Shown here piece after piece: positions 8,522 through 38,644 of a stretch of DNA of 64,000 nt. Position 1 is the stretch's first letter, and each line of letters starts with the position of its first letter. The DNA comes from an uncultured Acidobacteriota bacterium. GTDB lineage: Bacteria > Acidobacteriota > UBA6911 > RPQK01 > CBDAPI01. Location of the stretch: contig CAZMGM010000004.1 of assembly GCA_964565865.1 (NCBI GenBank), positions 1,050 to 65,049 of the forward strand, in the 5' to 3' direction. Made by a program: the position numbers and the translations under genes. The notes under the pieces were generated by a model. That model was not told where the DNA came from. It ran no database searches and saw only the letters and a program-made list of their open reading frames with translations.

Positions 8522-8822
8522 CGCAGCCTCCGCTTCAACTGAATCAGGGTGGAATAGTCCTTGATCAATAACCCTTCAAACACAGTGTGCTGATCGTCAC
8601 TTCGAAAAATCAATTCTTGCTCGGTCCCATTGAGGGCGTCGGCAACCCAGGCGCTTTCCACATCAGGCATGGGCAGGGTGACATCACTCTTCGACTCGAC
8701 TAGGCCGTCTGTGATACCACCCGGGAGGGGATTCAAACAACTCTAGCGACAGCCACTGGCTGGCTGAGACACGGTCCATCCTGAGATAAGGTATCAGAAT
8801 GGCAGAGTGTAAGCTCACCGTT

Positions 8823-8858
8823 AACGGCCGGCTTACGTCCCGCCGTTCTGTTTTTTTT
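8823..8858 (+). terminator. Rho-independent-terminator-like hairpin + T8 on the plus strand, with no upstream plus-strand gene
   Basis: aacggccgg...cgtcccgccgtt stem followed by ctgTTTTTTTTg; on the minus strand the U-run would come before the hairpin, so it is not a canonical terminator for the adjacent minus-strand gene. Confidence 0.35.
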
Positions 8859-8874
8859 GAGCCAAACAAGTACC

Positions 8875-10566: not shown

Positions 10567-10607
10567 GATGTACCCTCATAGCTCTGCCGGTTGCCGGTTT
10601 CATCAGG

Positions 10608-15007: not shown

Positions 15008-15038
15008 ACCGGACTCTTCCTTCAACTTTCAACCTTCT

Positions 15039-15560
15039 TCAATCTTTGTCCAGGAAAAGGAGAAAGTTGTTGCGGGTCGGCTCTCCAGTTTCCCCCGTTT
15101 TTTGAAGCACAAAAAGAATCTCTTTATTCCCTGAATCGACCGATTGGAAAACTCTCATCGTGGCTTTCCAATCACGCGGTTCATACTCGTACTGGGCCTG
15201 TCCGGTTTTACTGTAGTGGCGTTCCTCGTCGGTCCCGATCGGTATCGCTGTGGGACGGAAAAAGAGCGTCCCCACGACGGGCACGACCCACGTCTGTGAC
15301 GCCTGTTTCTGGTGCGGCAGCCCATTGACAACGGCGATAATTCGTTCTCCTCTCAGAAACACCAGTGAGTGATGTCCTTTCTCAAAGTGCAGCTCCAGGT
15401 TATAACTCCCCTTTTCGATACGGACCCCTTCTCCGGTGTACAGGTCCATGGGAAGATACAGCTGGCTCACGTGTGAAGGCTGATCCGGGACTGGTATTGG
15501 TGAAGCCAACAGAAAGCCAGACAGAAAGAGCAAGGACAAGCCTCTCATCAGCATCGTCAT
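15039..15560 (-). CDS. hypothetical secreted protein
   Basis: Signal peptide MTMLMRGLSLLFLSGFLLASP; no known domain recognised; start among three nearby ATGs is uncertain. Confidence 0.5.
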   Translation of the reverse strand: MTMLMRGLSLLFLSGFLLASPIPVPDQPSHVSQLYLPMDLYTGEGVRIEKGSYNLELHFEKGHHSLVFLRGERIIAVVNGLPHQKQASQTWVVPVVGTLFFRPTAIPIGTDEERHYSKTGQAQYEYEPRDWKATMRVFQSVDSGNKEILFVLQKTGETGEPTRNNFLLFLDKD

Positions 15561-15651
15561 CACCGGCTTATTTTGCATTCTGCGGAGTTTTGTATCTGGA
15601 CCCACGGTCCGGGTCATAACACTACACAAGAAACTTCCGCCATGCGAGCCA

Positions 15652-17106: not shown

Positions 17107-17137
17107 AATAGATGTCCTTCTAATCAGTAGAGGCTCT

Positions 17138-23800: not shown

Positions 23801-24562
23801 CTATTGGTCGATGACAGATACCGGGGTTTTTTCCTCGATTCCCAGCAGCTCCTTGGCCTTCTCTACACAGGCTACGGCATCGCGGCCGTAACCGTCGGCC
23901 TTCATCTCTTTGGCCATCTCAACGGACAGGGCCGCACCGCCGGCCATCAGCTTGATCCGATCTCGCAGGCCGGCCTCTTTAAAGGCCTTGTGGTTTCGGC
24001 CAATGTTCTCCATGGTCGTTGTCAGCAGAGCTGACATGCCCACTATGTCGGCATCGTGCTCCCTCACGGCCTCGATGAACTCCTCGGCTTTAGTGTCTAC
24101 GCCCAAATCGTGAACCTCGAATCCGGCTCCCCGTAGCATCATTGTGCACAGGTTCTTTCCGATGTCGTGCAGATCCCCTTTTACCGTGCCCATGATCACT
24201 CTCCCGAGGGGCTCGATTTCGGAGGCGGAAAGAATGGGTTCCAGGTGGGTCATCCCGGCCTTCATGGCACGGGCCGCAACCAGTACCTCCGGGACAAAAA
24301 TGACATTGTCCCGAAATTTGACGCCTACGACCGACATACCTCCAATGAGCCCGTCGTCCAAAATTGTCTCAGCGTTCATACCGCTGTCCAGGGCCTCTCT
24401 GGTCAACCGGTCAACCTCATGTTGATCTCCGACAATCACCCCGTAGGCCATGTCTTGCAGGATGCCCCTCGCGTTTTCCAGTACCCCGCGAATACGCAGG
24501 TTTTCCTCGGGTTTCGTCACCCATTCAAGCTCTTTGTTCAGCCCTTCGTTCACTATTGCCAT
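23801..24562 (-). CDS. corrinoid (cobalamin)-binding protein of a methyltransferase system (B12-binding_2 + B12-binding domains), copy 1
   Basis: DxHxxG motif GDLHDIGKNL, GMSALLTTTM, helical cap domain; paralogous to 28870-29667. Confidence 0.85.
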   Translation of the reverse strand: MAIVNEGLNKELEWVTKPEENLRIRGVLENARGILQDMAYGVIVGDQHEVDRLTREALDSGMNAETILDDGLIGGMSVVGVKFRDNVIFVPEVLVAARAMKAGMTHLEPILSASEIEPLGRVIMGTVKGDLHDIGKNLCTMMLRGAGFEVHDLGVDTKAEEFIEAVREHDADIVGMSALLTTTMENIGRNHKAFKEAGLRDRIKLMAGGAALSVEMAKEMKADGYGRDAVACVEKAKELLGIEEKTPVSVIDQ

Positions 24563-24661: not shown

Positions 24662-25792
24662 TTACTGGAGAGAAATCGGGTATTTCCCATACCGAAAAGT
24701 AGCTTCTAGCATCGCCGCATAGTTGTCAATGGGGACATACTCCGGAACCGAATTACCGGAGGAGACACAATACCCACCACCCGGCCCCAGATCACGAATC
24801 CTGGTCCGAACCTCGTCCTCGACCTCCCCGGGGGTCCCTTTGGTCAAGGTGTACTGCAGATCGATGTTGCCTAAAAGGGCGATCCGATCTCCGTACTTGG
24901 CTTTTATCTCGTTAATATCGTGGGCCTGCTTTTCAACTGGATGCCAACCGTTGATCCCCATGTCAATCAGGTCCTCGATGACCATCGAGATATCCCCGTC
25001 GGTGTGATAGATAAAGGGCTTGTCCGCTGCCTTGGCCATCTCACACATAGTACGGTAGCAGGGAAACGCATACTTCCGGTAGTGATCTGGATGAACGAGC
25101 GGACCACCCTTCCCTGACAGATCGTCGGCATGAAAGCTCATACCCACGGCGGGGTGGTCCATGGCCACCTGCATCGCCCGTTGCTGTAGGGGCACGATTT
25201 TGTCATACATCATTTCGATGAATTCGGGGTCGTCGATGTAGGCCAGCATGAACGTCTCCATGCCCAGCATGAACCAGACGCCGGTAAAAATCTTGCCGAT
25301 GACAACGGCGATCTTCATGTCGTCCGGGAGTAGCGCCCCAACCTCGTCCAGGACGGAAAAGTCCAGGTCGTCAGGATTGGGCCAGGGATAAGCGTCGAAC
25401 TCTTCTCTGGTGCTGATGATTCCCTTGTGCATTTCCGCCCAGTGGCGTTCTGTGTAGGCTTCGAGAGTGGCCTTGCTCATGGCCTGTGTGGTAATCGCCA
25501 GGCCGGTTACCTTGTCGAGTTCGCTCGGGGTGTCGTCGACTGTGTGGTAGTTCAGTACGGACAGAGATACGGGATAGGCGTCGTATCCGGCCGTCCTATA
25601 AAACTGGATTTCATCTTCGTGCCCTTTGAGAGGGCGGCCCATGAACTGCTGCTTGATTTCCGGTTCTATGCCCATCTCAAAAATGGGCACATAATCCGGC
25701 TCCTGGTGAGAGATCGTCGCCTTGACCCTCTCAAAGTCCGTTTTCCGATCACCCTTGGCAGCTATGGCTCGTTCTACGGACTCCGGAATCAT
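24662..25792 (-). CDS. URO-D-family methyltransferase (MtaA/CmuA/MtvB-like) without the His/Cys zinc motif
   Basis: Uroporphyrinogen-decarboxylase-like fold (…PDYVPIFEMGIEPE… C-terminal …LGPGGGYCVSSGNSVPEYVPIDNYAAMLEA); the position of the MtaA zinc ligands reads YHTDGD, with no Cys. Confidence 0.75.
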   Translation of the reverse strand: MIPESVERAIAAKGDRKTDFERVKATISHQEPDYVPIFEMGIEPEIKQQFMGRPLKGHEDEIQFYRTAGYDAYPVSLSVLNYHTVDDTPSELDKVTGLAITTQAMSKATLEAYTERHWAEMHKGIISTREEFDAYPWPNPDDLDFSVLDEVGALLPDDMKIAVVIGKIFTGVWFMLGMETFMLAYIDDPEFIEMMYDKIVPLQQRAMQVAMDHPAVGMSFHADDLSGKGGPLVHPDHYRKYAFPCYRTMCEMAKAADKPFIYHTDGDISMVIEDLIDMGINGWHPVEKQAHDINEIKAKYGDRIALLGNIDLQYTLTKGTPGEVEDEVRTRIRDLGPGGGYCVSSGNSVPEYVPIDNYAAMLEATFRYGKYPISLQ

Positions 25793-26025: not shown

Positions 26026-26793
26026 TTGGAGAAGGAGACTATGAGAGAAAACCGGGCAAAACGAAAACTAAATGACGGCGAGGTGGTGACAATTCTGCAG
26101 GGTGATGGCACCGCCGATATGATCGATTTCGTGGGGCAGCTGGGCGTGGATGGAGTCTGGCTGGAGGGTGAGCATGGTGCTCTCAGCTGGGAACAAATCG
26201 GTAACCGCTCGCGCGCCTGTGACCTGTGGGGGATGACCTCCGTTACCCGCGTGAACAAGAACGATGAAGGGCTGATCATGCGCACCCTGGACCGGGGCAG
26301 CATGGGCGTGGTAGTTCCTCACGTAAACAGTCGAATAGCCGCCCGGCAGGTGGTGCAGGCCGCCAAGTATGCTCCCGTCGGGTTACGGGGAATGTTCGGG
26401 GGACGTCAGTCCTACGGTGTTGAGAACTACTTTCGGCAGGCCAACGACCAGACTCTGGTGGTGGTGCTGATCGAGGAGCTGGAAGCGGTTCAGAACCTGG
26501 CAGAGATCCTGACCGTCGAGCATATCGATGTCTTTTTAGTGGCACCTTCAGATCTGGCCCAAACTATGGGGCATATCGGAAACCATCAGCACCCCGAAGT
26601 TCAGGCAACGGTCGATAGTGCTCTGGCTCAGATTGTCGCTGCGGGGAAAAATGCCGGGACACTAGTTTCTGACGAGACAGTAGAACGATATGTCGCTGCT
26701 GGAGTGAGCTTCCTCCTCACGCCCTGGAACCTGTGGGTGGCAAAAGGTGCACGGGCATTTCTCGAAAAGGTCCGATCAGCCGCTGCTTCGTAA
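26026..26793 (+). CDS. HpcH/HpaI-family class II aldolase (second copy), embedded divergently in the methyltransferase cluster
   Basis: GGAGAAGGAG RBS; …VDGVWLEGEHGALSWE…DRGSMGVVVPHVNS…GLRGMFG… family motifs. Confidence 0.8.
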   Translation: MEKETMRENRAKRKLNDGEVVTILQGDGTADMIDFVGQLGVDGVWLEGEHGALSWEQIGNRSRACDLWGMTSVTRVNKNDEGLIMRTLDRGSMGVVVPHVNSRIAARQVVQAAKYAPVGLRGMFGGRQSYGVENYFRQANDQTLVVVLIEELEAVQNLAEILTVEHIDVFLVAPSDLAQTMGHIGNHQHPEVQATVDSALAQIVAAGKNAGTLVSDETVERYVAAGVSFLLTPWNLWVAKGARAFLEKVRSAAAS

Positions 26794-26867: not shown

Positions 26868-28493
26868 TCATTGGATTTGGGACTTGGTGCTGGGCTGGAA
26901 CATGCACCCCTCCACGAAAATATCAAAGAAATCCTCCGTGGTCTCCAGTTCGATGTGTTCGATCTCTTTCGCCGTCTTTTCTACCCACTGACGCAGGTCC
27001 TTCGACAGCAGCATGAGCGTGGCCCCCTGCAGAGCAGCATTGCCGACCTTCACTATTTTCTCCTGGGAAACATCAGGGATAAAGCCGATTCTGCGGGCAC
27101 TCTTCACGTCGATGTAATTGGCGAATCCCCCGGCCAGATAGACTTTGCTAATTTCTTCCACGGCCACGCCGAAGCGGCGGCGCACGATGTGCTGCCCACA
27201 GAAGTTAGCTGCCTTGGCCTGGGCCAGAGCGCTGATGTCGGCCCTTGAAAGGGACATCCCCTGGCCCGGAACAAATTCAAAGGCCTGACGATTGTCCGTA
27301 AAGACGCCCAACTTAGTCATGGAGCCGGTGCGCCGCAGCTCCGCCAGCAGATCGATCAGACCAGAGCCGCAGATTCCCAGAGGAGGGGCGTCCCCGATGG
27401 TGCGCCATTTCACATTGCCGTCCTCGAGCTTGACTGACTCAACTGCCCCTTCATAGCCGGGCATGCCATAGGTGATTTCCCCGCCCTCGAAAGCCGGGCC
27501 CGCTGGACAGGAGGCTGCCATCATGCGGTTTCGGTTGCCCACCACGATCTCCGTGTTGGTTCCCACATCGATGAGCATGACCTCGTCGTTTTCCCGGTCC
27601 ATGCCAATCGCCAAAAGGTCCGCCGCCAAGTCGGCCCCCACGTGAGAAGCGATCAAAGGCCCGCCGTAGATGTTGCCCTTGGGAAAAATTCTGAGGCCCA
27701 AATCACGGGCCTGCACATTGAGGGCAGTCGTGTCCCTTTTTCCGTCAAGCATTTCGTGTTCGGTGACCGACTTATAGGGCTTCTCGCCGATGGACTGGAC
27801 ATCGAAGCCAAACAGGATATCCCGCATTGTGGAGTTGCCTACCACGACCATCTCGTAAATCTGCCTCCTGGGGATTCCCGTTCGCTGACACATCTCCCGA
27901 ATCTCAAAGTTCAACCCGGACAGGATCGCCTGCTGTAGTTCACCGTGGAACTGGGTTCCGTCATAGGAGATGCGGTTCATGATGTCGCTTCCACCGAAGC
28001 GCTGAGGGTTTTCAAAAGAATTTGTGTGTAGCACGTCACCATTCTTCAAGTCGACCACATTAAAGACGACCGTGGTGGTTCCCAGGTCAACCGCTAGCCC
28101 TAAAAGGTTGCCCCGATATCGATCGATTCGAGTCTCCCGATCGTAGACATCGCCGTTGCTTCGTCTTATGAGAGGGTCGACTCTTACCTGGCGATGAATC
28201 GAGTCACTGAGGATCTTGGGTTCCCTTCGCAGCAGGGAGAATTCGACGTCGGCGTCGGGATTCTTCACCCGAGCCTGACAGGCAAGCCGGTAGTTCCCAC
28301 GCAGGAAGCTCTCTGCGTGGGTGGGTTCGCAAAGGGCTTCCATTCCCTGCCCGATCTGGACCACGCATTCATGACACTCACCACTGCGTCCACAGGAGGT
28401 AGGCACTCGAACCTCCAGCTCGTCGGCGTAATCAAAAATGGTTCGATTGACGACCAGCTTCAGCTCCTGGTCATCGTGTCGGATTCGAGACAT
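26868..28493 (-). CDS. RACo-type reductive activator of corrinoid proteins (N-terminal plant-type 2Fe-2S ferredoxin + ASKHA ATPase domain)
   Basis: CGRSGECHECVV…LACQARV (Cx5Cx2C…C), linker, then GLAVDLGTTTVV (ASKHA phosphate-1) and a DUF4445-like remainder. Confidence 0.8.
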   Translation of the reverse strand: MSRIRHDDQELKLVVNRTIFDYADELEVRVPTSCGRSGECHECVVQIGQGMEALCEPTHAESFLRGNYRLACQARVKNPDADVEFSLLRREPKILSDSIHRQVRVDPLIRRSNGDVYDRETRIDRYRGNLLGLAVDLGTTTVVFNVVDLKNGDVLHTNSFENPQRFGGSDIMNRISYDGTQFHGELQQAILSGLNFEIREMCQRTGIPRRQIYEMVVVGNSTMRDILFGFDVQSIGEKPYKSVTEHEMLDGKRDTTALNVQARDLGLRIFPKGNIYGGPLIASHVGADLAADLLAIGMDRENDEVMLIDVGTNTEIVVGNRNRMMAASCPAGPAFEGGEITYGMPGYEGAVESVKLEDGNVKWRTIGDAPPLGICGSGLIDLLAELRRTGSMTKLGVFTDNRQAFEFVPGQGMSLSRADISALAQAKAANFCGQHIVRRRFGVAVEEISKVYLAGGFANYIDVKSARRIGFIPDVSQEKIVKVGNAALQGATLMLLSKDLRQWVEKTAKEIEHIELETTEDFFDIFVEGCMFQPSTKSQIQ

Positions 28494-28544
28494 GGCTCCG
28501 TAGCTCCCTTAAACAAACGTCCGCTTATTTATAAAAGAGAGTAC

Positions 28545-28796
28545 TTACTCTACTTCCCAGGCACTCCGGTAGTCTAACTTGTCGCTGCCGGTGCAGATGG
28601 CCAACTGGTCGCGGCCGTCCTCGTAGCGCTGGTAGCGGCAGCCAAAGCGGGCGGTGCAGCGGTCATCCTTGTTCTTGTAGGGACAGCGCCACTGTGAAAC
28701 TTCGTTGGCGGTTTGGCCGATGTCCTGGTAGATCTCCCACAAGCGGTCGAGACTTCTCTGCAACTTTGCTTTGTCAGTTTGCGCATTGGAAGACAT
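28545..28796 (-). CDS. small hypothetical protein, 83 aa, four Cys (possible metal-binding)
   Basis: ORF in the same orientation between the corrinoid-2 and RACo genes; …WRCPYKNKDDRCTARFGCRYQRYEDGRDQLAIC…; no known family recognised. Confidence 0.45.
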   Translation of the reverse strand: MSSNAQTDKAKLQRSLDRLWEIYQDIGQTANEVSQWRCPYKNKDDRCTARFGCRYQRYEDGRDQLAICTGSDKLDYRSAWEVE

Positions 28797-28869
28797 CGGA
28801 CGACTCCCGTCTTTCGGGTATTCAGTGTGCCGGTAACAGCACTAGTATTCTACCAGCCGTGGTCCGAAG

Positions 28870-29667
28870 TTATTCCTCAACCGAGGAGCCGGCCGTTGCT
28901 TCTTGTGGAGGGGCAACAGGCGAGGACGCAGATTTGTCCTGGATACCTAACAGCTGTTTGGTCTTTTCCACGCAGGCAATCGCATCCTTGCCGTAGCCGT
29001 CCGCTCCCATATCGTCCGCGAATTCCTGGGTGACAGGGGCTCCTCCGACCATGGTCTTGACCCTGCTCTGGAGCCCCGCTTCTTCAAAAGCCTGGATGGT
29101 CTTCCCCATGTTGGGCATGGTAGTGGTCAGCAAGGCCGACATTCCCACCACCTGTGCACCGTGCTCCATGACCGCGTCGATGAACTCGTCGGGCTTCGTA
29201 TCCACTCCCAGATCCTCAACCGTGAAGCCGGACCCACGCAGCATCATGATGCACAGGTTCTTGCCAATATCGTGAAGGTCGCCCTTGACTGTCCCCATGA
29301 TTACAGTACCCAACGGAGGGAGGTCAGAGGCCGAGAGAATAGGCTCCAGGTGGGCCATGCCAGCCTTCATAGCTCGAGCTGAGATCAGAACCTCGGGAAC
29401 AAAAATGATGTTGTCTCGAAACTTGACACCGACCAGAGCCATCCCCGCAATGAGCCCGTCATCCAGCACAGTACTTGCCTCAAAACCCTCGTCTAGGGCC
29501 TGTTTGCTCAACCGGTCCACATCGTGCTGATTGCCTACGATGAGGGCGTAGCTGATGTCCTGCATTAGTGGATCTGCCCCTTCGAAAGTCGTACTGATCC
29601 GTTGCAACTCGTTGGGCCGGGTCACATGAACCAGCTCCTTAATGAGACCCTCATTTACGATCGGCAT
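28870..29667 (-). CDS. corrinoid (cobalamin)-binding protein of a methyltransferase system, copy 2
   Basis: AAGGAG 6 nt upstream of ATG 29667 (MPIVNEGL…); GDLHDIGKNL DxHxxG; about 70-75% identical to copy 1 with a Pro/Ser-rich C-terminal tail. Confidence 0.85.
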   Translation of the reverse strand: MPIVNEGLIKELVHVTRPNELQRISTTFEGADPLMQDISYALIVGNQHDVDRLSKQALDEGFEASTVLDDGLIAGMALVGVKFRDNIIFVPEVLISARAMKAGMAHLEPILSASDLPPLGTVIMGTVKGDLHDIGKNLCIMMLRGSGFTVEDLGVDTKPDEFIDAVMEHGAQVVGMSALLTTTMPNMGKTIQAFEEAGLQSRVKTMVGGAPVTQEFADDMGADGYGKDAIACVEKTKQLLGIQDKSASSPVAPPQEATAGSSVEE

Positions 29668-29717
29668 TCTCTTCTCCTTCACAGCCGGCCGTTAGCCTCG
29701 GCCGCTTTCCCAGCCTC

Positions 29718-30761
29718 TCACGATTCCAGGCGCCCGTCCCTCCAGGCCTGTATGTAGTTGACGCAGAATTCGTCTTGGCCCAGTAAAACCTCGCGGGCCA
29801 AACGGATCCCCTTCGACTCGATGTCCAGATCCAGGATCGCTTCGATGTCGCACTGAACCGGATCGATGATGCCACTGTCAATTCCTGCTTCCAGACTCAG
29901 GTGAATGAACGCTAGATTGATCAGCTTTCTCTGGGGCAGTCCAAAGGAAACATTGCTTAGCCCACCCGTTATATGAACTTCGGGCCCGTAAAGCTCCCGC
30001 ATCTCGGTCACGGCATCCAGGTAATGCTGGCCGTAATCGGCAGCCACCGAGATCGGAAATACCAGGCCGTCGATGTACACGTCGTCCAGCTGAATCCCTC
30101 TGGCTTCTACCATATCCATCAGCTGCTTCACGTTGGCTACCCTTTCAGCCGCGTCGGAAGGCATGCCCTCAGCTCCCGCCGCAGTCACGATGATCCTGGC
30201 GTTGTATTGTTCTACCAGATCCAGGGTCTGTGGTCGCTCCAAGGCCAGAGAGTTCAGCATGGGCCGACCGGCCCGGCCGTCGTATTGAGCCAGACCTGCT
30301 TCAATGATCTCGGCATTGGAAGAGTCCACGCTGAGCGGAATCGGAGACACCTCCTGAACGGTCCTGACCAGCCACTCCATGGCCCGTTTCTGGACATCTA
30401 CCCGATAGGACACTTCGTCTACGTTCAAATCCAGAAAGTGGGCTCCCGCATCAACCTGTCGTCTGACGCCGTAGTGTACGTAGTCCTTCGCCTGCGCCTG
30501 ATCGTCGGGGTCGTCACTGAGCCCCTTGTTCACCGCAATCATGTAGTGCTTGACATGACCTTGCTGATAGGGCTGAGTCTCTTTGTAGCTCTCGGGAATG
30601 GGCATGAGGCGCCTCTCCCCCGACTCCCCGCGAAACAGAACGGCTTCCGTCCCATCTTCGAGGGTGGTCACACGGATCCCCTTCACCAAGACGACCCGAG
30701 TGGCGTGGATGTTTTCTCCAATAATGACAAAATCCCGGGCCGATTCAACGATTCTTGGCAT
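29718..30761 (-). CDS. pterin-binding methyltransferase (methyl-tetrahydrofolate:corrinoid methyltransferase, AcsE/MtrH/MtvA-like)
   Basis: IIGENIH N-terminal pterin-binding signature and TIM-barrel DHPS-like remainder (…DGLVFPISVAADYG…GGLSNVSFG…). Confidence 0.75.
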   Translation of the reverse strand: MPRIVESARDFVIIGENIHATRVVLVKGIRVTTLEDGTEAVLFRGESGERRLMPIPESYKETQPYQQGHVKHYMIAVNKGLSDDPDDQAQAKDYVHYGVRRQVDAGAHFLDLNVDEVSYRVDVQKRAMEWLVRTVQEVSPIPLSVDSSNAEIIEAGLAQYDGRAGRPMLNSLALERPQTLDLVEQYNARIIVTAAGAEGMPSDAAERVANVKQLMDMVEARGIQLDDVYIDGLVFPISVAADYGQHYLDAVTEMRELYGPEVHITGGLSNVSFGLPQRKLINLAFIHLSLEAGIDSGIIDPVQCDIEAILDLDIESKGIRLAREVLLGQDEFCVNYIQAWRDGRLES

Positions 30762-30798
30762 GACGAAGACGATCTAAGTGATTACTTTACTTAGGAAA

Positions 30799-31836
30799 TC
30801 AGTTGGAGTGTTTTTTGCACCATTCTTTGACAGACTTGGGTATCTCGAGCAGATTTTCGAGTCTGGTTGCCAGGGGAATGGCACATTCGGGAGCGATCAA
30901 ATTTACCCCGGCATCCATGCATGCATTGACCGCCTCACGCACTTCTTCGGGTCCGCGAGCATAGAGCAGCTCGGGATTATTGAGGTTCCCCACCAGCTGG
31001 ATCCGTCCGTCCGCAATCTCCATGGCCTTCTTCGGATCGTTTTTGGAGTCGAAATGGAAACAGGCCATCCCTGTCTGGGCGATGAAATCCAATCGGTCAA
31101 GAGTAGCCCCGCAAATGTGCAGGATGAGCGGGCATGGGATCCGCTCCACTATTTCCTTATGGAGTTCCAGCAGAAACTTCCGGTAATACTCTCCACTCAC
31201 GAGATCTCCGGTTGCGTGATCCGGAAAAGTAAGAGCATCGGCTCCGGCTTCGATTTGTGCATTGGAGAACAGAACCGAGATTTCCGTGAGGCGCTCCAGG
31301 CACTGCATGGTCCTACCCGGATCATCAATGCTCATGAGCAGAAACTGCTCGACTCCGAAGACGTGGTAGGCAAGTGTCCAGGGCCCCATCGCTTTCCCGA
31401 TAATGGCAGCTTCGTCCCCGTACTCCTTCTTTAAAATAGACAGACAGTCAAGCACGCAGCGATTGTCCGGGTGGGTCAGAAAATCCTTGGGGATGTGAAC
31501 GTCTTCCGGTCCTTCCCAGATGGGCTTGTACATGCGTACGGTGGGCCAGTTGTCTTTTACTTCCCATTGCATTTCACAACCCAGGGCCGAGGATTCTTGA
31601 ATGATGGTGAAGACCGGCATAATGCTGTCGAAACCTAGCTCGGTGTACCCCGTTGCGGCCAGTCGGGCATTCAATTCGGGATCTCGGCAGGCGTCCGGAA
31701 ACGGAGCGCCCACCAAGTCCATCAACTCGACGGTAGCCACATTCGTAGGATTGGATATGGGCGGCCTGTCAACTGGTTTGCCAGCCAGAGCATTGAGAAC
31801 CCGGTCTCGAGGTTTCATTGTTTCAAGAAAAGCCAT
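30799..31836 (-). CDS. MtaA/MtbA/MtsA-like URO-D-family methyltransferase with zinc-binding motif
   Basis: MtaA-like N-terminus …RVLNALAGKPVDRPP…; ILHICG (His-x-Cys) and a downstream APECAIP Cys as in methylcobamide:thiol methyltransferases. Confidence 0.8.
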   Translation of the reverse strand: MAFLETMKPRDRVLNALAGKPVDRPPISNPTNVATVELMDLVGAPFPDACRDPELNARLAATGYTELGFDSIMPVFTIIQESSALGCEMQWEVKDNWPTVRMYKPIWEGPEDVHIPKDFLTHPDNRCVLDCLSILKKEYGDEAAIIGKAMGPWTLAYHVFGVEQFLLMSIDDPGRTMQCLERLTEISVLFSNAQIEAGADALTFPDHATGDLVSGEYYRKFLLELHKEIVERIPCPLILHICGATLDRLDFIAQTGMACFHFDSKNDPKKAMEIADGRIQLVGNLNNPELLYARGPEEVREAVNACMDAGVNLIAPECAIPLATRLENLLEIPKSVKEWCKKHSN

Positions 31837-31888
31837 TAGGAGTTACTCCTCAACAATTGGCATCGTGGCGAACCAGTGGAGCCAATGA

Positions 31889-32581
31889 TCACATGGGGCT
31901 GAATCCAGCGGTTCCGGTTGTCAGCTGTCCCCGCATGGCTGACTCCTCCAGCATTGTTTCCACCGCGCTGATGTTGCGCGAGTAGGGGAGCAGAAGCCTG
32001 AGTAATTCATCGTGGCGTTGTCCGCACTCAAACGCAACCAGATTCTCTCCTGCTTTCTCCATTTCGCCGTAACGGATGAAGCCTGCCTGCAGGGCCGGAA
32101 GTCGCCAGGGAATTTTTTCCGGATCGCCGGCGGCAGAAATCCGATAAACCCAGCGGTCACCCTGGCCACTGCCCTCAACGTTGATCGTCAGGTCAGTTTT
32201 GGTGTCAGGTATCGACAGCGGCCCTTCAGGATGCCTGTAGTCGGGCGATTTCTCGACTGCCTGGGCCAGCAGGAACTTGAGGGGTCTGGCATGCTGGGAG
32301 CCACACCAGAATCTCGCCTGGTCGTTGGTATCCTCGACCACCTCCAGGCCACCCAGCTTGATCAGCTGATCACGAATGTTTCGAATCCGCTTTGTCGCAC
32401 CGTCCTTCTGGCTATAGGTCCAGACCGTTAGAATGTTGCCTTTCCGGTAAAGTCCCACCGTAATGTCTTCGAAGTGCGGGTCCATCGAAATCAACTCTAG
32501 GCACTTTCCGTACCGCTCGACAACATCAATCACCCGAAGGCTGTGCTCCTCTCCTGTTTCTACCATAAGGCTCTCCTCCAT
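31889..32581 (-). CDS. hypothetical protein (230 aa)
   Basis: ORF in the same orientation immediately upstream of the mtaA-like gene; no recognisable domain. Confidence 0.5.
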   Translation of the reverse strand: MEESLMVETGEEHSLRVIDVVERYGKCLELISMDPHFEDITVGLYRKGNILTVWTYSQKDGATKRIRNIRDQLIKLGGLEVVEDTNDQARFWCGSQHARPLKFLLAQAVEKSPDYRHPEGPLSIPDTKTDLTINVEGSGQGDRWVYRISAAGDPEKIPWRLPALQAGFIRYGEMEKAGENLVAFECGQRHDELLRLLLPYSRNISAVETMLEESAMRGQLTTGTAGFSPM

Positions 32582-32608
32582 TTGGATCTGCCTCTACGAG
32601 AATCTCTG

Positions 32609-32959
32609 CTATTCAGAAATCCATCCGTCCGCAGCACCCGGGTAGGGGTTGCGCTCTCCCGATTTCTGTAGACTCCGAACCCGGCTCACGAAGTCTTCTG
32701 GGAAACCTTGATTGTAACGATCCGCCAGCTTCACAGCCGCCTCGGCTGCAGTAGCTTCCACTGCAAAGTACTCTCCCCAGGCCCATCCATTCAGATAACT
32801 CTCCGAGTCGAGGCTTCCATCCAGCATGGCTAGCCGGTCGATCCCTTCCTGGAAACGGCCGGCAAGTGGCTGTGACACCTGCCCGTGCTCGTCCTCAGTT
32901 TGGACCTGGACAGGAATCTCCTTCCAGTAAAGAACCCGCGCCTTCGTACTCCTTTTCAC
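32609..32959 (-). CDS. hypothetical protein (116 aa)
   Basis: ORF in the same orientation with a 27-nt gap to the next gene; …VLYWKEIPVQVQTEDEHG…; no confident family. Confidence 0.5.
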   Translation of the reverse strand: MKRSTKARVLYWKEIPVQVQTEDEHGQVSQPLAGRFQEGIDRLAMLDGSLDSESYLNGWAWGEYFAVEATAAEAAVKLADRYNQGFPEDFVSRVRSLQKSGERNPYPGAADGWISE

Positions 32960-33250
32960 GAACAGAGGCCCATGTCTATAGTAACTCTCCTTCTTGTTTC
33001 CCCACCCCCAGCAAATGACTTTCTATTAATGGAAAGAAAGGCTGAGTGGTGCCCATTCTGTCAGGCTCCGGCGCAAAAGTACGGGGGACATACTACATGA
33101 ATTTCGGTCTGGTTTCCAAGCAGCCTGTGGGACTCTCACCACGGGCTGCAAAGGCAGCCGAGTTCCTGACGCCACTTTAAAAAAAGGGGGCGGGACTTCA
33201 CATTTCCTTACCAACTAACGGATAATTGCATCTTCTGGCGGAGGTGAGAA

Positions 33251-34003
33251 ATGAGTTTTCGACTGGATGGGCGTGTTGCCCTGGTAACCGGAGCAGCCAC
33301 GGGCATTGGCGAAGCCACAGCCCGGAGACTAGCAGATTACGGGGCCAGGGTTTGTATCGTGGACATCGATCCCGAGGCTGCCTCAGAGGCCGCCGCTCGA
33401 CTTTCCTCGGCGGGGCACAAATCCCAGATCATTACTGCGGATGTCTCTGTCCCGGAGGATGCCGAGAGAATGGTTCTGGAAGCGCTGGAACAACTCGGTC
33501 AGATCGACATCCTCGTGAACAACGCGGGAATTGCCGGGAAAAGTGCCCCGTTATGGGAACAGACCGATGAGGACTGGGGGCGGATCGTGGGCATCAATCT
33601 GCACGGAGTGTTTTATTGTTGCCGTGCCGTGGTCCCTCATATGCGGGAGCGAAACCAAGGACGAATCATCAATGTTGCCTCGATTGCCGGCAAGGAAGGG
33701 AACCCCCTGGCTACCCCCTATTCGACTACCAAAGCCGCTGTCATCGGGCTCACAAAGGCGCTGGCCAAGGAAGTTGTCGCTGAAAGCATCAGGGTTAACT
33801 GTGTTGCGCCGGCGGTGATCCAAACCCGGATCCTGGATCAAATGAGTCAGCAGCACATTGACTACATGGTGAGTAAGATCCCCCTCGGGCGGGTGGGAAC
33901 CCCCGAAGAGGTAGCTGCTGTGATCCATTTTCTGGCCTCAGACGACTCCAGTTTTGTGACCGGCCAGTGTTACGACGTCAGCGGTGGCAGAGCCACCTAT
34001 TGA
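33251..34003 (+). CDS. SDR-family oxidoreductase (FabG-like)
   Basis: GGAGG RBS; TGAATGIG Rossmann motif, NNAG, catalytic S…YxxxK. Confidence 0.85.
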   Translation: MSFRLDGRVALVTGAATGIGEATARRLADYGARVCIVDIDPEAASEAAARLSSAGHKSQIITADVSVPEDAERMVLEALEQLGQIDILVNNAGIAGKSAPLWEQTDEDWGRIVGINLHGVFYCCRAVVPHMRERNQGRIINVASIAGKEGNPLATPYSTTKAAVIGLTKALAKEVVAESIRVNCVAPAVIQTRILDQMSQQHIDYMVSKIPLGRVGTPEEVAAVIHFLASDDSSFVTGQCYDVSGGRATY

Positions 34004-34018
34004 AGGGGGAGTGGTGAT

Positions 34019-34987
34019 TTACCCCTGATCGTCAGTGGAGGCCCCAAAACGGCGTGACAGCAACCCGGCTTCTTCAATGATTTCCGCCACCAGTTCCTCC
34101 TGGCGATAGGCCATGACATGAACACCCGAGACTCCAGGGATCTCGCTCACCTGCTGAATGATCTCAACACAAATGTTTCGGCCTTCCTCACGCTGATTCC
34201 CGGTCGGAACCGATTTCAAACGCTGGATGATCGGGTCTGGAATCACGACACCGGGAATATTCGTTCTGATCCACTCGGCGGCCCCGGCAGACCGCAAGGG
34301 ACCCACCCCAACCAGTATGAAGACCTGTTCATGGATTCCCAGGTCACGGACCGCCGTCATGAAAGTCTCCAGGCGGGGAACATCGAAACAGTACTGGGTC
34401 TGGATAAAATCGGCACCTGCCTCGACTTTCTTCTTTAGCCTCAGGGGGCGGAAGTCGAAGGGCGGAACGAAGGGATTGGCAGCAGCTCCCAGAAACAAAG
34501 GTGGTGGTGTTTCCAGCTTCCGGCCACTCAAGAAGCGGGATTCGTCGCGCAGGATCCGGGCGGTTCTGAGCAGAGTCATCGAGTCGAGGTCGAAAACCGG
34601 TCGGGCGTCGGGCTGGTCGCCCACCTGCACGCCGTCGCCGGTCAAGCACAGGACGTTCCGTACGCCCAGTGCGGCGGCACCCAGCAGATCTCCCTGAATG
34701 GAGATTCGATTGCGATCCCGGCAGGAAACCTGCAAAACGGGCTCATATCCCGCCTGGGTGAGAAGGGAACAGACTCCCACGCTGGACATGTGTACATGTG
34801 CTCCCGAGGCGTCGGTGGCGTTGATGGCATCACAGACGGAAGCCAGCACCAGGGCCCGATCATAAACCTCATTTGGATCCGCCGTGTCGGGAGGATTCAG
34901 CTCGGCAGTCACGGCAAAGCGACCCGACCGCAATACGTGCTCAAGGCGCGAACCGGCTCGCATTCTGGTTTTCTCCATCATTCCCAC
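34019..34987 (-). CDS. metF: 5,10-methylenetetrahydrofolate reductase, acetogen-type large subunit
   Basis: MTHFR TIM-barrel sequence (…FAVTAELNPP…LCLTGDG…FIQTQYCFD…); the start could be ATG 34978/34981 (TGATG coupling with metV) or GTG 34987. Confidence 0.8.
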   Translation of the reverse strand: MGMMEKTRMRAGSRLEHVLRSGRFAVTAELNPPDTADPNEVYDRALVLASVCDAINATDASGAHVHMSSVGVCSLLTQAGYEPVLQVSCRDRNRISIQGDLLGAAALGVRNVLCLTGDGVQVGDQPDARPVFDLDSMTLLRTARILRDESRFLSGRKLETPPPLFLGAAANPFVPPFDFRPLRLKKKVEAGADFIQTQYCFDVPRLETFMTAVRDLGIHEQVFILVGVGPLRSAGAAEWIRTNIPGVVIPDPIIQRLKSVPTGNQREEGRNICVEIIQQVSEIPGVSGVHVMAYRQEELVAEIIEEAGLLSRRFGASTDDQG

Positions 34988-35427
34988 CCAGGTGGCGGGT
35001 TGCCCTTACCGGCGAAATCGTTCACCCAGGCGGAAGTCCCTTCGAGTTGACGATTGAGCGGGGGTAGAACCTTGAGTATTTCCGAACCGTTGGAGGGCAT
35101 TCTCTGGGATCGCTCCCAGGCCTCGACCCAGACGCAAGGCATGTCGGGAACGATCTCGCAGTGCCCATTGGTCCGTACTCCTCCACAGGGACCGTTCCGC
35201 AGGTTCTTGGGACAGGTCATGGGGCAGGTCATTCCCGTCACGTGCAATACGCACTGGCCGCACATACGGCAATCAAACACGATTCCCTTGCCGACTCGTT
35301 CGGCGTAAATCAGGAAAGATTCCACCCAGCCCCCCGGCTTCAACCAGGGGCGAAAAGGACGCAGCAGTTGACGGGTGGCAGAATACGCCAACTCAAGAAG
35401 ATGAGGATACTCCTGTAGGATTCTCAC
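34978..35427 (-). CDS. metV: MetV-like small subunit (MTHFR_C Cys-rich domain)
   Basis: Cys-rich CRMCGQCVLHVTGMTCPMTCPKNLRNGPCGG typical of the MTHFR C-terminal/MetV domain; overlaps the metF start. Confidence 0.7.
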   Translation of the reverse strand: MRILQEYPHLLELAYSATRQLLRPFRPWLKPGGWVESFLIYAERVGKGIVFDCRMCGQCVLHVTGMTCPMTCPKNLRNGPCGGVRTNGHCEIVPDMPCVWVEAWERSQRMPSNGSEILKVLPPLNRQLEGTSAWVNDFAGKGNPPPGWE

Positions 35428-35519
35428 CGTTTTTTCTCCACTGTCCAGAGTCGCGTTTTCGACGGGCTCACCGCCGGCAGTCTAACAGCCCGTGGTTAGA
35501 GTCGTGCTTCAGCGCACTT

Positions 35520-36470
35520 CTAACCGACTATGTTGCGGGGCGTCCCGGCGAAAAAAGCTCGAATATTTTCTCCGGTTTCATCCACTAACTTCTGTCGCGC
35601 CTGGCGGGCTGACCAGGCGCAGTGAGGCGTAATGATCATGTTTTTTGCGTCTAGAAGGACATTACCGTCAACTGGAGGTTCGATAGTAAGAACGTCGAAT
35701 CCTGCCCCGGCAATTCGACCGCTGTTCAGGGCGGCAGCCAGGGCCTGCTCGTCCACGATCCCGCCCCGTGCCGTATTGATAATCATGGCCGTTGGCTTCA
35801 TCCTGCTCAAGGCATCCGCATCGATCAAGTTGCGAGTATGATCGGTCAGGGGGCTGTGCACGGTCACAAAGTCGGACTCCCGAAAAATGGTTCTAAGATC
35901 GGTGTTGGTGTAGTCGGACCCTCGAATCTCAATGATGTCGTAGGCCAGTACCCTCATACCGAAGCCCTCAGCAATCCGCGCCACTCCCCGCCCAATGGTC
36001 CCAAAGCCAATGATTCCAATGGTCAGGCCCGAGAGCTCGAATGCCGGGTACTTCAACAGGTTGAACGAGGCGGCTCTGGCCCACTCCCCCGCCATGACAT
36101 CGGCATGATAGAGATGAGCTTTGGTGGCCAGGTTGAGAATCAGAGCAAAGGTGTGCTGGGGGACCGTGTTGGAGGCATATCCGGCTACATTGCAGACCGC
36201 AACTCCCTTTTCCCTGGCAGCTTCCAAATCGACGTTGTCGTATCCCGTTGCGATTTCAGCGATTAGCCGGAGTGAATCCAAGGACTCGATCACCTTTGAG
36301 GTGATCAGAACCTTGTTGGGAATCACCACCTCGGCACCGGAGGCTCTTTCGACGACCTCGTCCTCGGACGAGTGGGCGTAACCAACATAGTCTCCCAGTC
36401 CTTCAAAGACGGAGAAGTCAATGTCGTTTTTGAGACTGATAGTCGATTCGTCCGGAAAAACGATCTTCAT
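35520..36470 (-). CDS. D-isomer-specific 2-hydroxyacid dehydrogenase (glycerate/phosphoglycerate-DH-like)
   Basis: MKIVFPD… start at ATG 36470 with an AGGGAA RBS; GIIGFGTIGRGVARIAEGFGMRV NAD motif; catalytic R/E/H. Confidence 0.8.
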   Translation of the reverse strand: MKIVFPDESTISLKNDIDFSVFEGLGDYVGYAHSSEDEVVERASGAEVVIPNKVLITSKVIESLDSLRLIAEIATGYDNVDLEAAREKGVAVCNVAGYASNTVPQHTFALILNLATKAHLYHADVMAGEWARAASFNLLKYPAFELSGLTIGIIGFGTIGRGVARIAEGFGMRVLAYDIIEIRGSDYTNTDLRTIFRESDFVTVHSPLTDHTRNLIDADALSRMKPTAMIINTARGGIVDEQALAAALNSGRIAGAGFDVLTIEPPVDGNVLLDAKNMIITPHCAWSARQARQKLVDETGENIRAFFAGTPRNIVG

Positions 36471-36699
36471 TTCCCTGAGCCCCTTTATATACTCTCTTAT
36501 CCTCGCAGATACGGAAAAGCTTACAGCATTTGAATCATTCCACAAGGGCAGGGCCCCAGAATTTGATCACCACAGCCACAGAAATACGGTGATTTGCCGG
36601 TTCTGGCAGCCCATCGACTGCGGGCTCCTCAGGAATCCGACCAGATCTCTGTCTCAAAGGACAGGGGTTCTGCCTTATTGAATCGCCAGGCCTCCTCTT

Positions 36700-37110
36700 A
36701 CAGGTCAGCCTTCAGACAAAGGTTGCCAAGAAACCCCTCAACGTCCGCACCCGTACAGTACGACCACCTGGGGTAGCAGAAGTCCTTTCCTTTTCTTTCT
36801 GTATGATCATAAGGTCATGCTTCCCGATGCGGATCTGCTGGGTCAAAGATATGTGAGGGCGTTGATCTCGATACGGAGATCCGGAAGTTCTGCGATGGTC
36901 ACCGCCGGAAAACGTGGATCGCGAGTGGCCGCGGAGATTGCCATGCCAGTCACCGATTTGATGAAAGGCTGACGAAAGCTCCTTGCTGCTTCAAGTAGAG
37001 ACTGCGACTTGGTATCCCAAGCCGGGAGCTCGCCGATGGTCAGGTACGCCGTAATCAATGTTCGGGCCAGGCAAAGCAGCTCGTCACTCTGACATTCTCG
37101 TTCTCAAGCT
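36700..37110 (-). pseudogene. AMMECR1-domain gene remnant (frameshifted and truncated)
   Basis: The 36843-37058 frame reads …MAISAATRDPRFPAVTIAELPDLRIEINALTYL* (AMMECR1 DPRFPP…IEISVLT block) with the RGCIG motif degenerate; the homologous continuation (…RIGKHDLMII…) lies in another frame. Confidence 0.35.
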
Positions 37111-37369
37111 ATTCGACTATTCAAGTCTGATAGGGAGCGGTAATCAACCTGGCCTTCACCGTCCAGGCAAAATACGCGTCGAAGTTGGGGCGGACTGACA
37201 CCCGCTCCTTCCCGGCTGGCGCCACAGCAGACTCTGATCCTCTCGACAACTGCGTCCGGAAGAGGGGTTGCCGGTTAACAGTTGTTGGTGGAAGATCGCA
37301 CGTTTGTGGAACCTGAAATAGGGGAGGCATGGCCTTGGGTGACAGTTCTTCCCTGTAAACTAAATTACC

Positions 37370-38644
37370 ATGTCCAGGGGTGACTGTGTTCAGACGGCCT
37401 TTCTTTGCGGGCGGGCATCTGGGAGGGCCTTGCTTTCAATTGCCCTTGGAGTGGGCTTGATGACGCTCCATTCCAGCAGGCTGGTTGGCAAGGATCAGCC
37501 ATCTCTGAACATCCGGGATCTCTACAGCCCGATGAATAAGAAAAGACCTGTACGTCCCTTTACGAAGTACATCGTCCTGCATACGACCGAAGGTCGGGAA
37601 GAGGGCTCCCTCAAGAAGATTCGCCGCCTGGGCGAAGCCCACTATTTCGTGGGTCTGAACGGAAGGATCTATCGGATCATCCACCGGACCAGAATCGCGA
37701 CTCATGCGGGAAGGAGCTACTGGGACGGCCAGAAGGGCATCGACGCCCACTCGATCGGCATCGAAATCGCAGGCTATCATAATCGCGACATCACCTCACA
37801 ACAGTATTCCGCTCTGGCGGAGCTCCTGCGCCAGCTGCGTTCACTCTACGACGTTCCCGATGATCGCATTCTGACCCATTCCATGGTCGCTTACGGTAGT
37901 CCCAACCGCTTTCACCGCTACTACCATCGGGGACGCAAGCGTTGCGCGATGATCTTCGCCAAGCCGAACGTTCGAGAGCGGCTGGGAATTCCAGGCAAAC
38001 CCCTCGAAGATCCTGAAGTCAAGGCCAGACGGCTTCGCGTTGCCGACCCGGAGCTGCACCGTTTTCTGTACGCAACGATGCCGGAAAGACAACCGATTCA
38101 TTCCAATGTGATCGCCCGAGGATGGTCTGCCTGGACCATCGCCCGAGAGGAATATGACAGCCCTGGGACGCTTTACCACTTTCCCGACGGCAAGACCCTG
38201 CGGGGGGATGAAATCAGGAACTGGGACCAGATTCCGCCCGGTACCCGAGTGAAGCTCGGACAACCGGCCCCCAGTGTCGAATTCGAAGGATTCGTGGAAG
38301 TCAGAGATCAGGCCAGGGGTGCCCTAGACATCGTAGGCGATGTCTTTGCCGAAGATACGACGATCTATTTCCTTCCCAGTGGCTCGGTTCTCACGGGCGA
38401 GCAGATTCAGGGGGATTCCGAAAGTAGGTCGCTCCTGGCGAGTTTGCCTCCGGGGACCCGAATCCTGGTCGGCTATGTGTACGGGGGGCATATTACCCGC
38501 GGTCGGTTGCCCCGTCAGATCGCCGGGGCCAAATGGAATTATCCCTCGACTTTTTATCGGCTACCGGATGGACGAATCTTAAGTGGTGAGGAAATTGACC
38601 AGCACCGGATCCCACACAATACGTTGGTCTTCTATCAGAGCTGA
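37370..38644 (+). CDS. N-acetylmuramoyl-L-alanine amidase (Amidase_2/PGRP domain) with three C-terminal repeats, secreted
   Basis: …YIVLHTTEG…HAGRSYWDG…IGIEIAG…LTHSMVA zinc-amidase motifs; signal peptide; C-terminal triple repeat Y[HR]FPDG[KR]xLxG[DE]EI…PxxTxV. Confidence 0.8.
   Translation: MSRGDCVQTAFLCGRASGRALLSIALGVGLMTLHSSRLVGKDQPSLNIRDLYSPMNKKRPVRPFTKYIVLHTTEGREEGSLKKIRRLGEAHYFVGLNGRIYRIIHRTRIATHAGRSYWDGQKGIDAHSIGIEIAGYHNRDITSQQYSALAELLRQLRSLYDVPDDRILTHSMVAYGSPNRFHRYYHRGRKRCAMIFAKPNVRERLGIPGKPLEDPEVKARRLRVADPELHRFLYATMPERQPIHSNVIARGWSAWTIAREEYDSPGTLYHFPDGKTLRGDEIRNWDQIPPGTRVKLGQPAPSVEFEGFVEVRDQARGALDIVGDVFAEDTTIYFLPSGSVLTGEQIQGDSESRSLLASLPPGTRILVGYVYGGHITRGRLPRQIAGAKWNYPSTFYRLPDGRILSGEEIDQHRIPHNTLVFYQS

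Follow-up and report, generated by a model that had tools for sequence, protein, structure and literature searches.

The window analysed here is a stretch of 64,000 nt from contig CAZMGM010000004.1 of an uncultured Acidobacteriota bacterium, and all coordinates refer to this window as a whole. At 28870-31836, its minus strand carries three closely packed open reading frames (ORFs), separated by gaps of 35 and 37 bp, that encode a corrinoid protein (CP2), a pterin-binding methyltransferase and a zinc methyltransferase resembling the MtaA of methanogens. The positions and identities of the three genes are exactly those of the initial annotation of the sequence. The trio, hereafter module 2, is the core of a larger operon, whose genes are given below in the order of transcription.

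34978-35427, minus strand: MetV, small zinc-ribbon subunit of a MetFV-type methylenetetrahydrofolate reductase (MTHFR), 149 aa (PF12225)
34019-34987, minus strand: MetF-type methylenetetrahydrofolate reductase, 322 aa (PF02219; MTHFR half of NF006396)
32609-32959, minus strand: PF13769 ("Virulence_fact") protein, 116 aa (PF13769, E 4e-11)
31889-32566, minus strand: unk230, protein of a new family, 225 aa
30799-31836, minus strand: MtaA-like zinc methyltransferase (MtaA/CmuA family, URO-D fold), 345 aa (PF01208, E 1e-68; TIGR01463; PRK06252)
29718-30761, minus strand: pterin-binding methyltransferase (MeTr/AcsE type, MT-II or MtgD-like), 347 aa (PF00809)
28870-29682, minus strand: corrinoid protein CP2 (B12-binding cap and Rossmann domains), methyl carrier, 270 aa (PF02607 and PF02310)
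26868-28493, minus strand: RACo/RamA-type ATP-dependent corrinoid reductive activase, 541 aa (PF00111, PF17651, PF14574)

An SDR gene on the opposite strand lies between metF and the PF13769 gene. The metV and metF genes overlap by 10 bp, and 376 bp separate CP2 from RACo. Pfam and NCBIfam profile matches place all four component types (methyltransferase, corrinoid protein, pterin-dependent MT-II and activating enzyme) in this one locus.

Judged from its sequence and its model, the 345-aa protein is a genuine MtaA-type enzyme with a predicted His-Cys-Cys zinc site. It scores above the curated cut-offs of the family (TIGR01463, 249.8 versus 235.4; PRK06252, 260.7 versus 244) and below those of the methanogen MtaA/MtbA equivalogs (NF040654, 222 versus 400 bits; NF041608, 200 versus 600 bits). 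In a phmmer search of PDB sequences, its sole strong match is Methanosarcina mazei MtaA (4AY7; E 8.6e-50, 32% identity over 321 columns). The motifs ILHICG (residues 238-243) and APECAIP (315-321) are aligned with VLHICG and APGCGIA of 4AY7. His240, Cys242 and Cys318 pair with His246, Cys248 and Cys325 of the 4AY7 chain, the numbering of which is shifted by +6 relative to the H240/C242/C319 quoted in the initial annotation. The proposal made there, that the motif corresponds to the zinc ligands of MtaA, is therefore borne out, and the structural comparison agrees: the AlphaFold2 (AF2) model (pLDDT 87.8) superimposes on 4AY7/4AY8 with TM-scores of 0.90-0.92 and an rmsd of 2.1 Å. UroD follows MtaA among the structure matches, and MetE zinc barrels come further down. 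The loop VKDNWPTVRM (residues 92-101) is almost invariant across the family and is the only segment with pLDDT <50; its possible role is that of a mobile lid in the docking of the substrate or of the corrinoid protein.

The His-Cys-Cys triad is invariant in 120/120 close homologue clusters. It is also kept in a SAR202 paralogue and in three relatives at 44-47% identity. Of 86 full-length sequences that represent more remote 50%-identity clusters, 79 have it. Sequence conservation thus takes the triad far beyond chance, yet marks it as a trait of the whole family rather than of the window protein. A tblastn search of plasmid sequences for characterised relatives returned mostly hemE, with one useful match, the cloned cmu operon. 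At the triad-aligned positions, CmuA has FTHTCTF...MPGCDI (His-Thr-Cys and Pro-Gly-Cys). The triad is therefore no proof of thiol chemistry, since a halide leaving group is also compatible with it. The view that the motif signals thiol chemistry consequently holds only in part. It agrees with the published rule that the triad marks sulfur/selenium methyltransferases, O-demethylases having replaced the cysteines (PMC10418091), and with the contrast to a second URO-D protein of the window described below; against it stand the family-wide occurrence of the triad and its presence in CmuA. The MtaA-like protein is 21-24% identical to CmuA (E 3e-10), compared with 32% to MtaA (E 9e-50). In a rough neighbour-joining (NJ) tree, its clade comprises 29 representatives of clusters (36-50% identity), and the hallmark of this clade is a Glu before the third ligand (Pro-Glu-Cys, not Pro-Gly-Cys); M. 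mazei MtaA is separate and CmuA lies outside. Annotation look-up of the distant cluster representatives gave generic "MtaA/CmuA family" labels only, and no corrinoid genes were found near the relatives at 44-47% identity (Latescibacterota, Armatimonadetes).

The partner proteins are readily recognised. CP2 carries the DxHxxG motif as GDLHDIGKN. Its best PDB match is 1Y80 (E 1e-62), and its identity to CmuA's corrinoid domain is 36%. The pterin-binding enzyme matches NF005719 at 214 bits. It is closer to MeTr (2YCI/2E7F, E 4e-35) and to the MT2 of D. hafniense (4O0Q), its best PDB matches, than to MetH pterin domains (E 1e-17), and its pterin motifs DS, NS, ID and SN are aligned. Compared with MeTr, it has about 55 extra residues after the first strand (residues ~20-95), and the PDB and Pfam alignments start near residue 95. 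BLAST at E < 0.01 revealed no similarity between this enzyme and CmuB. RACo is composed of a 2Fe-2S ferredoxin domain, a middle domain and an ASKHA domain.

Two further proteins of the operon belong to poorly characterised families. The longest ORF of unk230 reaches 32581, and its homologues begin at Met6. The 424 detectable homologues are all annotated "hypothetical", and no Pfam, NCBIfam or PDB sequence match was found for the protein. The family alignment has five invariant residues, Cys22, Cys88, His92, Cys181 and His185, which fall in two F-x-C-G-x-x-H motifs plus Cys22 and may form a putative metal site. The AF2 model (pLDDT 84.7) shows two similar alpha/beta halves; the statistical support for an internal sequence repeat is weak (z 3.6), and structure comparison gave no significant fold match for the model. 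Perhaps unk230 helps RACo to hold cobalt as Co(I). In a related cluster (L053), a DUF1638 gene stands where the window operon has unk230. The possibility that unk230 is a divergent DUF1638 was rejected at the sequence level (hhalign probability 0.2%).

PF13769 forms the N-terminus of a 760-aa activase of an alphaproteobacterium (Terrarubrum; L052, 8986-11268), in which the order is Virulence_fact, Fer2, RACo linker, middle and C domains. The gene of this activase adjoins those of a B12-binding protein and of a DUF1638 protein. A stand-alone copy of PF13769 is also found in L053 (4109-4411). Because PF13769 is a domain of RamA/RACo activases, we assign the 116-aa protein of the window to corrinoid reactivation. 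On these sequence grounds, the "Virulence factor" domain appears in reality to belong to RamA/RACo corrinoid activases, as their N-terminal domain or as an accessory to them, and its name is misleading. No discussion of PF13769 was found in the literature searched.

Conservation of the cluster was examined in one genome per species. This gave 43 close loci, with 73-95% identity for the MtaA-like protein, labelled as 23 Acidobacteriota and 20 Dehalococcoidia/Chloroflexota of the SAR202 type. The unk230 gene is directly upstream of the MtaA-like gene in all 43. The corrinoid protein gene is present in 39/43 loci, RACo, after CP2, in 38/43, and the pterin enzyme gene in 33/43, including 23/23 Acidobacteriota; MetV/MetF accompany the cluster in about 26/43. 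A stand-alone homocysteine S-methyltransferase gene (PF02574) lies immediately upstream of unk230 in 20/20 Dehalococcoidia loci. No PF02574 gene was found in the window or within 8 kb at any of the 23 Acidobacteriota loci; an orphan homologue, 73% identical to the SAR202 protein, is present in one marine Acidobacteria single-cell genome. In six loci of one SAR202 clade (L035-L040, ~6904-9020), the MtaA-like gene is found in tandem; the copies are 66-69% and 73% identical to the window protein and both keep the zinc triad. The flanking genes vary among loci and are of the housekeeping type (MgsA, SpoU, Sua5, XdhC), with no transporter or regulator among them except in one SAR202 locus (L027). 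There, an MFS transporter (9169-10626), which may be a substrate importer, is encoded immediately downstream of the MtaA-like gene, and no corrinoid protein or RACo gene is nearby. This setting is not that of a catabolic island and weakens the case for the methylthio-demethylase envisaged in the initial annotation: the window genes stand among housekeeping, MetV/MetF and reactivation genes, without transporter or regulator, and the adjacent gene in SAR202 is a homocysteine S-methyltransferase.

Beside the operon lies a second set of corrinoid genes, module 1.

24662-25792, minus strand: divergent URO-D methyltransferase, 376 aa (PF01208, E 7e-21)
23801-24562, minus strand: corrinoid protein CP1, 253 aa (PF02607 and PF02310)

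The URO-D protein of module 1 matches 4AY7 weakly and has His-x-Asp and Asn at the ligand columns, the pattern of the MT-I of O-demethylases. To judge from these residues, the two URO-D proteins of the window differ as the published rule of cysteines for S/Se and carboxylates for O would have it. The module-1 genes are co-located in two other loci (L001 and L006), where the CP1 orthologues are 64-65% identical to CP2. An HpcH/HpaI aldolase gene (26026-26793) adjoins module 1, and two related loci (L054/L055) have an HpcH aldolase gene paired with a weak URO-D gene beside a DHQ-synthase-like::URO-D fusion. The pairing with HpcH hints at methoxy-aromatic catabolism that would use the pterin methyltransferase and RACo of module 2. 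Module 1 probably feeds the same methyl hub, and would then share these two enzymes with it.

What does the operon do? A precedent is the split methionine synthase run by aerobic marine bacteria (Price et al. PMC5764234; Mausz et al. PMC12478193). Its parts are MtgD (a bidirectional pterin enzyme), MtgC (corrinoid protein), MtgE (PF02574), a RamA-like activase and DUF1638 (PMC5764234, PMC12478193). Donor enzymes of the MttB family plug into this hub, and a MetF paralogue (MetF2) is found alongside (PMC12478193, PMC5764234). The association with MetV/MetF, the corrinoid-reactivation context and the homocysteine S-methyltransferase of SAR202, read against this precedent with its bidirectional pterin enzyme, RamA-like activase and MetF2, suggest that the genes very probably make up the centre of a cobalamin methyl hub that resembles a split methionine synthase. 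Within it, the MtaA-like enzyme is very probably a zinc port for soft atoms (S, Se or halide). Sulfur is the most likely heteroatom at this port.

The direction of methyl flux through the port can be approached from energetics. Methyl transfer from a methyl-pterin to a thiol, of which the MetH and Mtr reactions are examples, is favourable at about -30 kJ/mol. In the other direction, to methylate cob(I)alamin with methylmercaptopropionate (MMPA) costs about +20 kJ/mol, and the reaction was seen only at 40 mM (Fu, Goettge and Metcalf, 10.1101/548461). MtpA is far better in the thiol-methylating direction, which is fast and has a Km of 12 µM, and in MtsF/CmtA a corrinoid/MT2-type protein with a preference for methyl-pterin as the donor is already on record (10.1101/548461). 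Methanogens spend a sodium gradient to return a methyl group from a thioether to a pterin. Since the transfer from thioether to cobalt is uphill, and given the MetH and Mtr energetics, the route from a methylthiol via cobalt to tetrahydrofolate (THF) would therefore cost about +30 kJ/mol overall. The route first proposed for this locus, in which the pterin enzyme passes the methyl group of a methylthio donor on to THF, thus runs uphill. With the operon's own ports, pterin and zinc-thiol, the downhill routes are from methyl-THF to a thiol or from a halomethane to THF. Transfer from a thioether to homocysteine is isoenergetic and feasible with a homocysteine module, as is adjacent in SAR202.

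We therefore tentatively favour the thiol-methylating direction, from methyl-THF or O-methyl donors via cobalt to a thiol, with a probability of roughly 0.4; a thiol acceptor was also the alternative named in the initial annotation. The operon is probably not a demethylase feeding folate oxidation. In the mechanism that we propose, MetVF would interconvert methylene-THF and methyl-THF, and the MeTr/MtgD-like pterin enzyme would exchange the methyl group between THF and the cobalt of CP2. RACo would hold the cobalt as Co(I), assisted by the PF13769 protein and perhaps unk230. The zinc of the MtaA-like enzyme, held by His240, Cys242 and Cys318, would bind a thiolate that takes the methyl group from methyl-Co(III), in the same direction (CH3-THF to Co to R-S-CH3) as in MtaA and in the homocysteine domain of MetH. 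O-methyl donors entering via module 1 would be an alternative methyl source for the hub. Homocysteine, sulfide or methanethiol, and 3-mercaptopropionate are candidate thiols.

Several observations weigh against this reading. The direction is one that we infer from thermodynamics and gene context. To our knowledge, all bacterial His-Cys-Cys URO-D enzymes characterised or proposed so far (CmuA, MecE, Mlp/Sdm) are presumed to take the methyl group from a donor. Classical four-component demethylases have the same gene order (MT, MT-II, corrinoid protein and activating enzyme). SAR202 genomes have both a homocysteine methyltransferase and an MtaA-like enzyme, sometimes two, which argues against homocysteine as the substrate, and their gene set looks like the substrate diversification of a donor-specific enzyme. 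Ten of the 20 SAR202 loci are without a pterin enzyme within 8 kb. Finally, Rfam searches of the whole window (gathering threshold), of 28400-37500 (E up to 1) and of eight related loci found no SAM (S-adenosylmethionine) or B12 riboswitch tying the operon to methionine or B12 regulation.

The rival that survives best turns the MtaA-like enzyme around. It would move a methyl group from a thioether or selenoether to the corrinoid protein, and from there to homocysteine rather than THF, giving methionine; donors could be methanethiol, dimethyl sulfide (DMS), MMPA, methylthio compounds derived from methylthioadenosine, or methylselenides. Such a salvage would be an isoenergetic thioether-to-thioether transfer, comparable with that of MtsA/MtsB or with the one suggested for mlp clusters. 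We regard it as possible, if rather doubtful. The Dehalococcoidia loci speak for it: the genes of the homocysteine methyltransferase, unk230 and the MtaA-like enzyme are contiguous in 20/20, and the ten loci lacking a nearby pterin enzyme amount to two zinc-thiol enzymes around one corrinoid protein. The pterin enzyme may, however, simply be encoded elsewhere, as in roseobacters (PMC12478193, PMC5764234). The tandem paralogues (L035-L040), the transporter downstream in L027 and the presumed donor-side role of other bacterial His-Cys-Cys URO-D enzymes also agree with salvage. The Acidobacteriota loci, including the window, do not, since without PF02574 within 8 kb the operon as encoded has no feasible sink, an objection tempered by the orphan homologue in the marine Acidobacteria single-cell genome. 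Moreover, methylthiols in the sea are nanomolar, and the half-reaction at +20 kJ/mol needs a high substrate concentration (10.1101/548461). The same logic has been proposed by Kountz and Balskus for bacterial homologues of SCMT enzymes (PMC10418091).

A split analogue of CmuA is a less likely solution. It would take the methyl group from CH3Cl, CH3Br or CH3I, with the pterin enzyme in the role of CmuB and MetF oxidising methyl-THF. CmuA shares the His-x-Cys...Cys positions, the cmu cluster likewise couples a URO-D-type methyltransferase and a corrinoid domain with a pterin methyltransferase and metF, and the transfer from halide to THF is downhill. The corrinoid proteins are related (36% identity), and haloalkane methyltransferases arose several times within the URO-D superfamily. 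In addition, a relative at 40% identity (L053) shows the CmuA-like fusion with a corrinoid domain; the genes of a pterin enzyme and RACo are next to it, and transposases flank it. On the other hand, MtaA is a far nearer relative of the window protein than CmuA, which is outside its clade in the rough NJ tree; the pterin enzyme shows no detectable similarity to CmuB; no cmuC, purU or folD is found nearby; and in SAR202 the neighbour is a homocysteine methyltransferase. Methyl halides are, besides, picomolar in seawater.

Slightly less probable still is a reading in which homocysteine methylation falls to the MtaA-like enzyme itself, the Acidobacteriota operon being a complete methionine synthase in which a URO-D enzyme replaces the PF02574 domain of MetH. 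The operon has all MetH functions (methyl supply by MetVF, pterin, B12 and reactivation) except the homocysteine domain; it is embedded among housekeeping genes, and the fold of the enzyme is related to the Zn/homocysteine barrel of MetE. However, every SAR202 orthologue (73-84% identity) lies beside a bona fide PF02574 gene, and two isofunctional neighbours would be odd. The close PF02574 homologue elsewhere in a marine Acidobacteria genome indicates that the module can be unlinked in this phylum, which weakens this option further, and the Rfam searches of the window and the eight related loci found no SAM riboswitch. The initial annotation's model, taken literally as a catabolic demethylase that would transfer methyl groups from methanethiol, DMS or MMPA via cobalt to THF and oxidise methyl-THF for energy, accords with the four-component layout, the His-Cys-Cys site and a nearby MetF as in the cmu and mtg catabolic systems, but is very improbable given the overall cost of about +30 kJ/mol (+20 for the first half-reaction, 10.1101/548461, the remainder from MetH and Mtr energetics), the sodium gradient that methanogens need for the equivalent step, and the lack of a transporter, of a regulator and of any gene downstream for the handling of thiols.

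Should the port act on sulfur compounds, B12, folate one-carbon metabolism, methionine synthesis and volatile organosulfur cycling would be linked in two of the most abundant bacterial lineages of the deep ocean, by means of a kind of enzyme associated until now with methanogens and strict anaerobes. It is conceivable, though we would not count on it, that in abundant pelagic SAR202 and Acidobacteriota a B12-dependent MtaA-type zinc enzyme gives small sulfur compounds a direct link to the methyl pool of folate and methionine. This could take the form of a new methionine synthase architecture, in which a URO-D-type enzyme replaces the homocysteine domain, or of a SAM-independent making or consuming of methanethiol, DMS or MMPA in oxic seawater; either would involve the previously unknown 225-aa Cys/His family. 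The significance would be greater if the port makes or consumes methanethiol or DMS, or stands in for the homocysteine domain of methionine synthase. A sulfur port would also add to the recently recognised oceanic B12 demand of split methionine-synthase hubs and explain why a "methylotrophic methanogenesis" pathway is spuriously called in metagenomes from oxic seawater. Two orphan families would gain a function, the PF13769 "virulence factor" domain as RACo accessory and the 225-aa protein.

As to the host, a 225-aa protein identical to unk230 was found in Tara Oceans and other seawater assemblies, which therefore identifies the host as a pelagic marine acidobacterium. A 494-aa protein with ankyrin and many TPR repeats, of eukaryote-like type (4761-6245), had suggested a sponge symbiont; this origin was dropped in view of the identical unk230 in Tara Oceans and seawater metagenomes. 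Elsewhere in the window, a class II (B12-dependent) ribonucleotide reductase is encoded at 51544-54267. With this second B12-dependent function in 64 kb, the organism seems to lean heavily on cobalamin. A PSCyt1/PSCyt2/PSD1 gene followed by a DUF1501 gene (15652-19813) brings Planctomycete-type domains into an Acidobacteriota genome; the same gene pair is also found directly upstream of the cluster in another locus (L033, 2233-7115). The only match of the Rfam searches was a group II intron (RF00029 and RF01999) at 14172-15980 of an Acidobacteriota locus (L022), a few kb downstream of the cluster.

Comparison with known systems places the operon between several of them. Like the methanogen MtaA, MtbA and MtsA, the window enzyme has a URO-D TIM-barrel, His-x-Cys...Cys zinc positions and a separate corrinoid protein, and its 32% identity to MtaA is as near as the methanogen coenzyme M methyltransferases stand to each other. 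Unlike them, it is bacterial, occurs in presumably aerobic marine lineages and has a folate methyltransferase and MetFV as partners. It also belongs to an NJ clade separate from that of MtaA, and use of coenzyme M is not expected. Literature searches that paired MtaA or corrinoid methyltransferases with SAR202 or with sponge symbionts gave no pertinent result.

The MtgBCDE hub of Ruegeria pomeroyi and Phaeobacter inhibens is alike in its separate pterin protein, corrinoid protein and RamA/RACo activase, in the adjacent MetF paralogue and in the logic of exchangeable ports, and the SAR202 loci add the stand-alone PF02574 homocysteine module. The plug-in is different: a zinc enzyme of the URO-D/MtaA type instead of an MttB-family (PF06253) betaine methyltransferase. 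Neither DUF1638 nor an MttB-family protein was found among the larger window ORFs scanned. The unrelated unk230 occupies the DUF1638-like slot, MetF is of the MetFV type, and the lineages are Acidobacteriota and Dehalococcoidia. The fused relative of L053, accompanied by DUF1638, a stand-alone PF13769 protein, the pterin enzyme and RACo, reads from its sequence as the same kit with DUF1638 replacing unk230.

The cmu operon of Methylobacterium and Hyphomicrobium, which couples CmuA, CmuB and MetF, shares the zinc triad, a related corrinoid module and the clustering of a pterin methyltransferase with metF. CmuA is a single fused protein of 614 aa, whereas the window has separate proteins of 345 and 270 aa, and none of cmuC, purU and folD is near the window cluster.

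For bacterial SCMT homologues with His-Cys-Cys sites, Kountz and Balskus argued for S/Se-methyl chemistry; the clusters, confined to anaerobes, contain two or three enzymes of this kind and none for folate (PMC10418091). The window operon and the type 1 mlp clusters share the proposed S/Se-methyl metabolism (PMC10418091). These combine two or three different Mlps (at least Mlp2 and Mlp3) with a corrinoid protein and Ram/RACE in obligate anaerobes, without a folate methyltransferase; the window has a single MtaA-like enzyme (two in some SAR202) together with a pterin enzyme and MetFV. The four-component O-demethylases (OdmABCD, MtvABC, MtoABCD, CdmBCA) likewise group MT-I, corrinoid protein, pterin MT-II and activase in one locus. 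Their MT-I enzymes are without Cys ligands or without zinc, whereas the module-2 enzyme keeps both cysteines; it is module 1 of the window that fits this type.

All component types are thus already known, and the hub concept itself was published in 2018-2025. The operon appears to be a split-MetH hub of the Price/Mausz type equipped with an SCMT-type enzyme, a combination without description in the searchable literature. What appears to be new is that abundant and presumably aerobic lineages of the sea have an SCMT-like His-Cys-Cys enzyme wired to MetFV and a folate methyltransferase, together with its obligate 225-aa partner family and the reassignment of PF13769.

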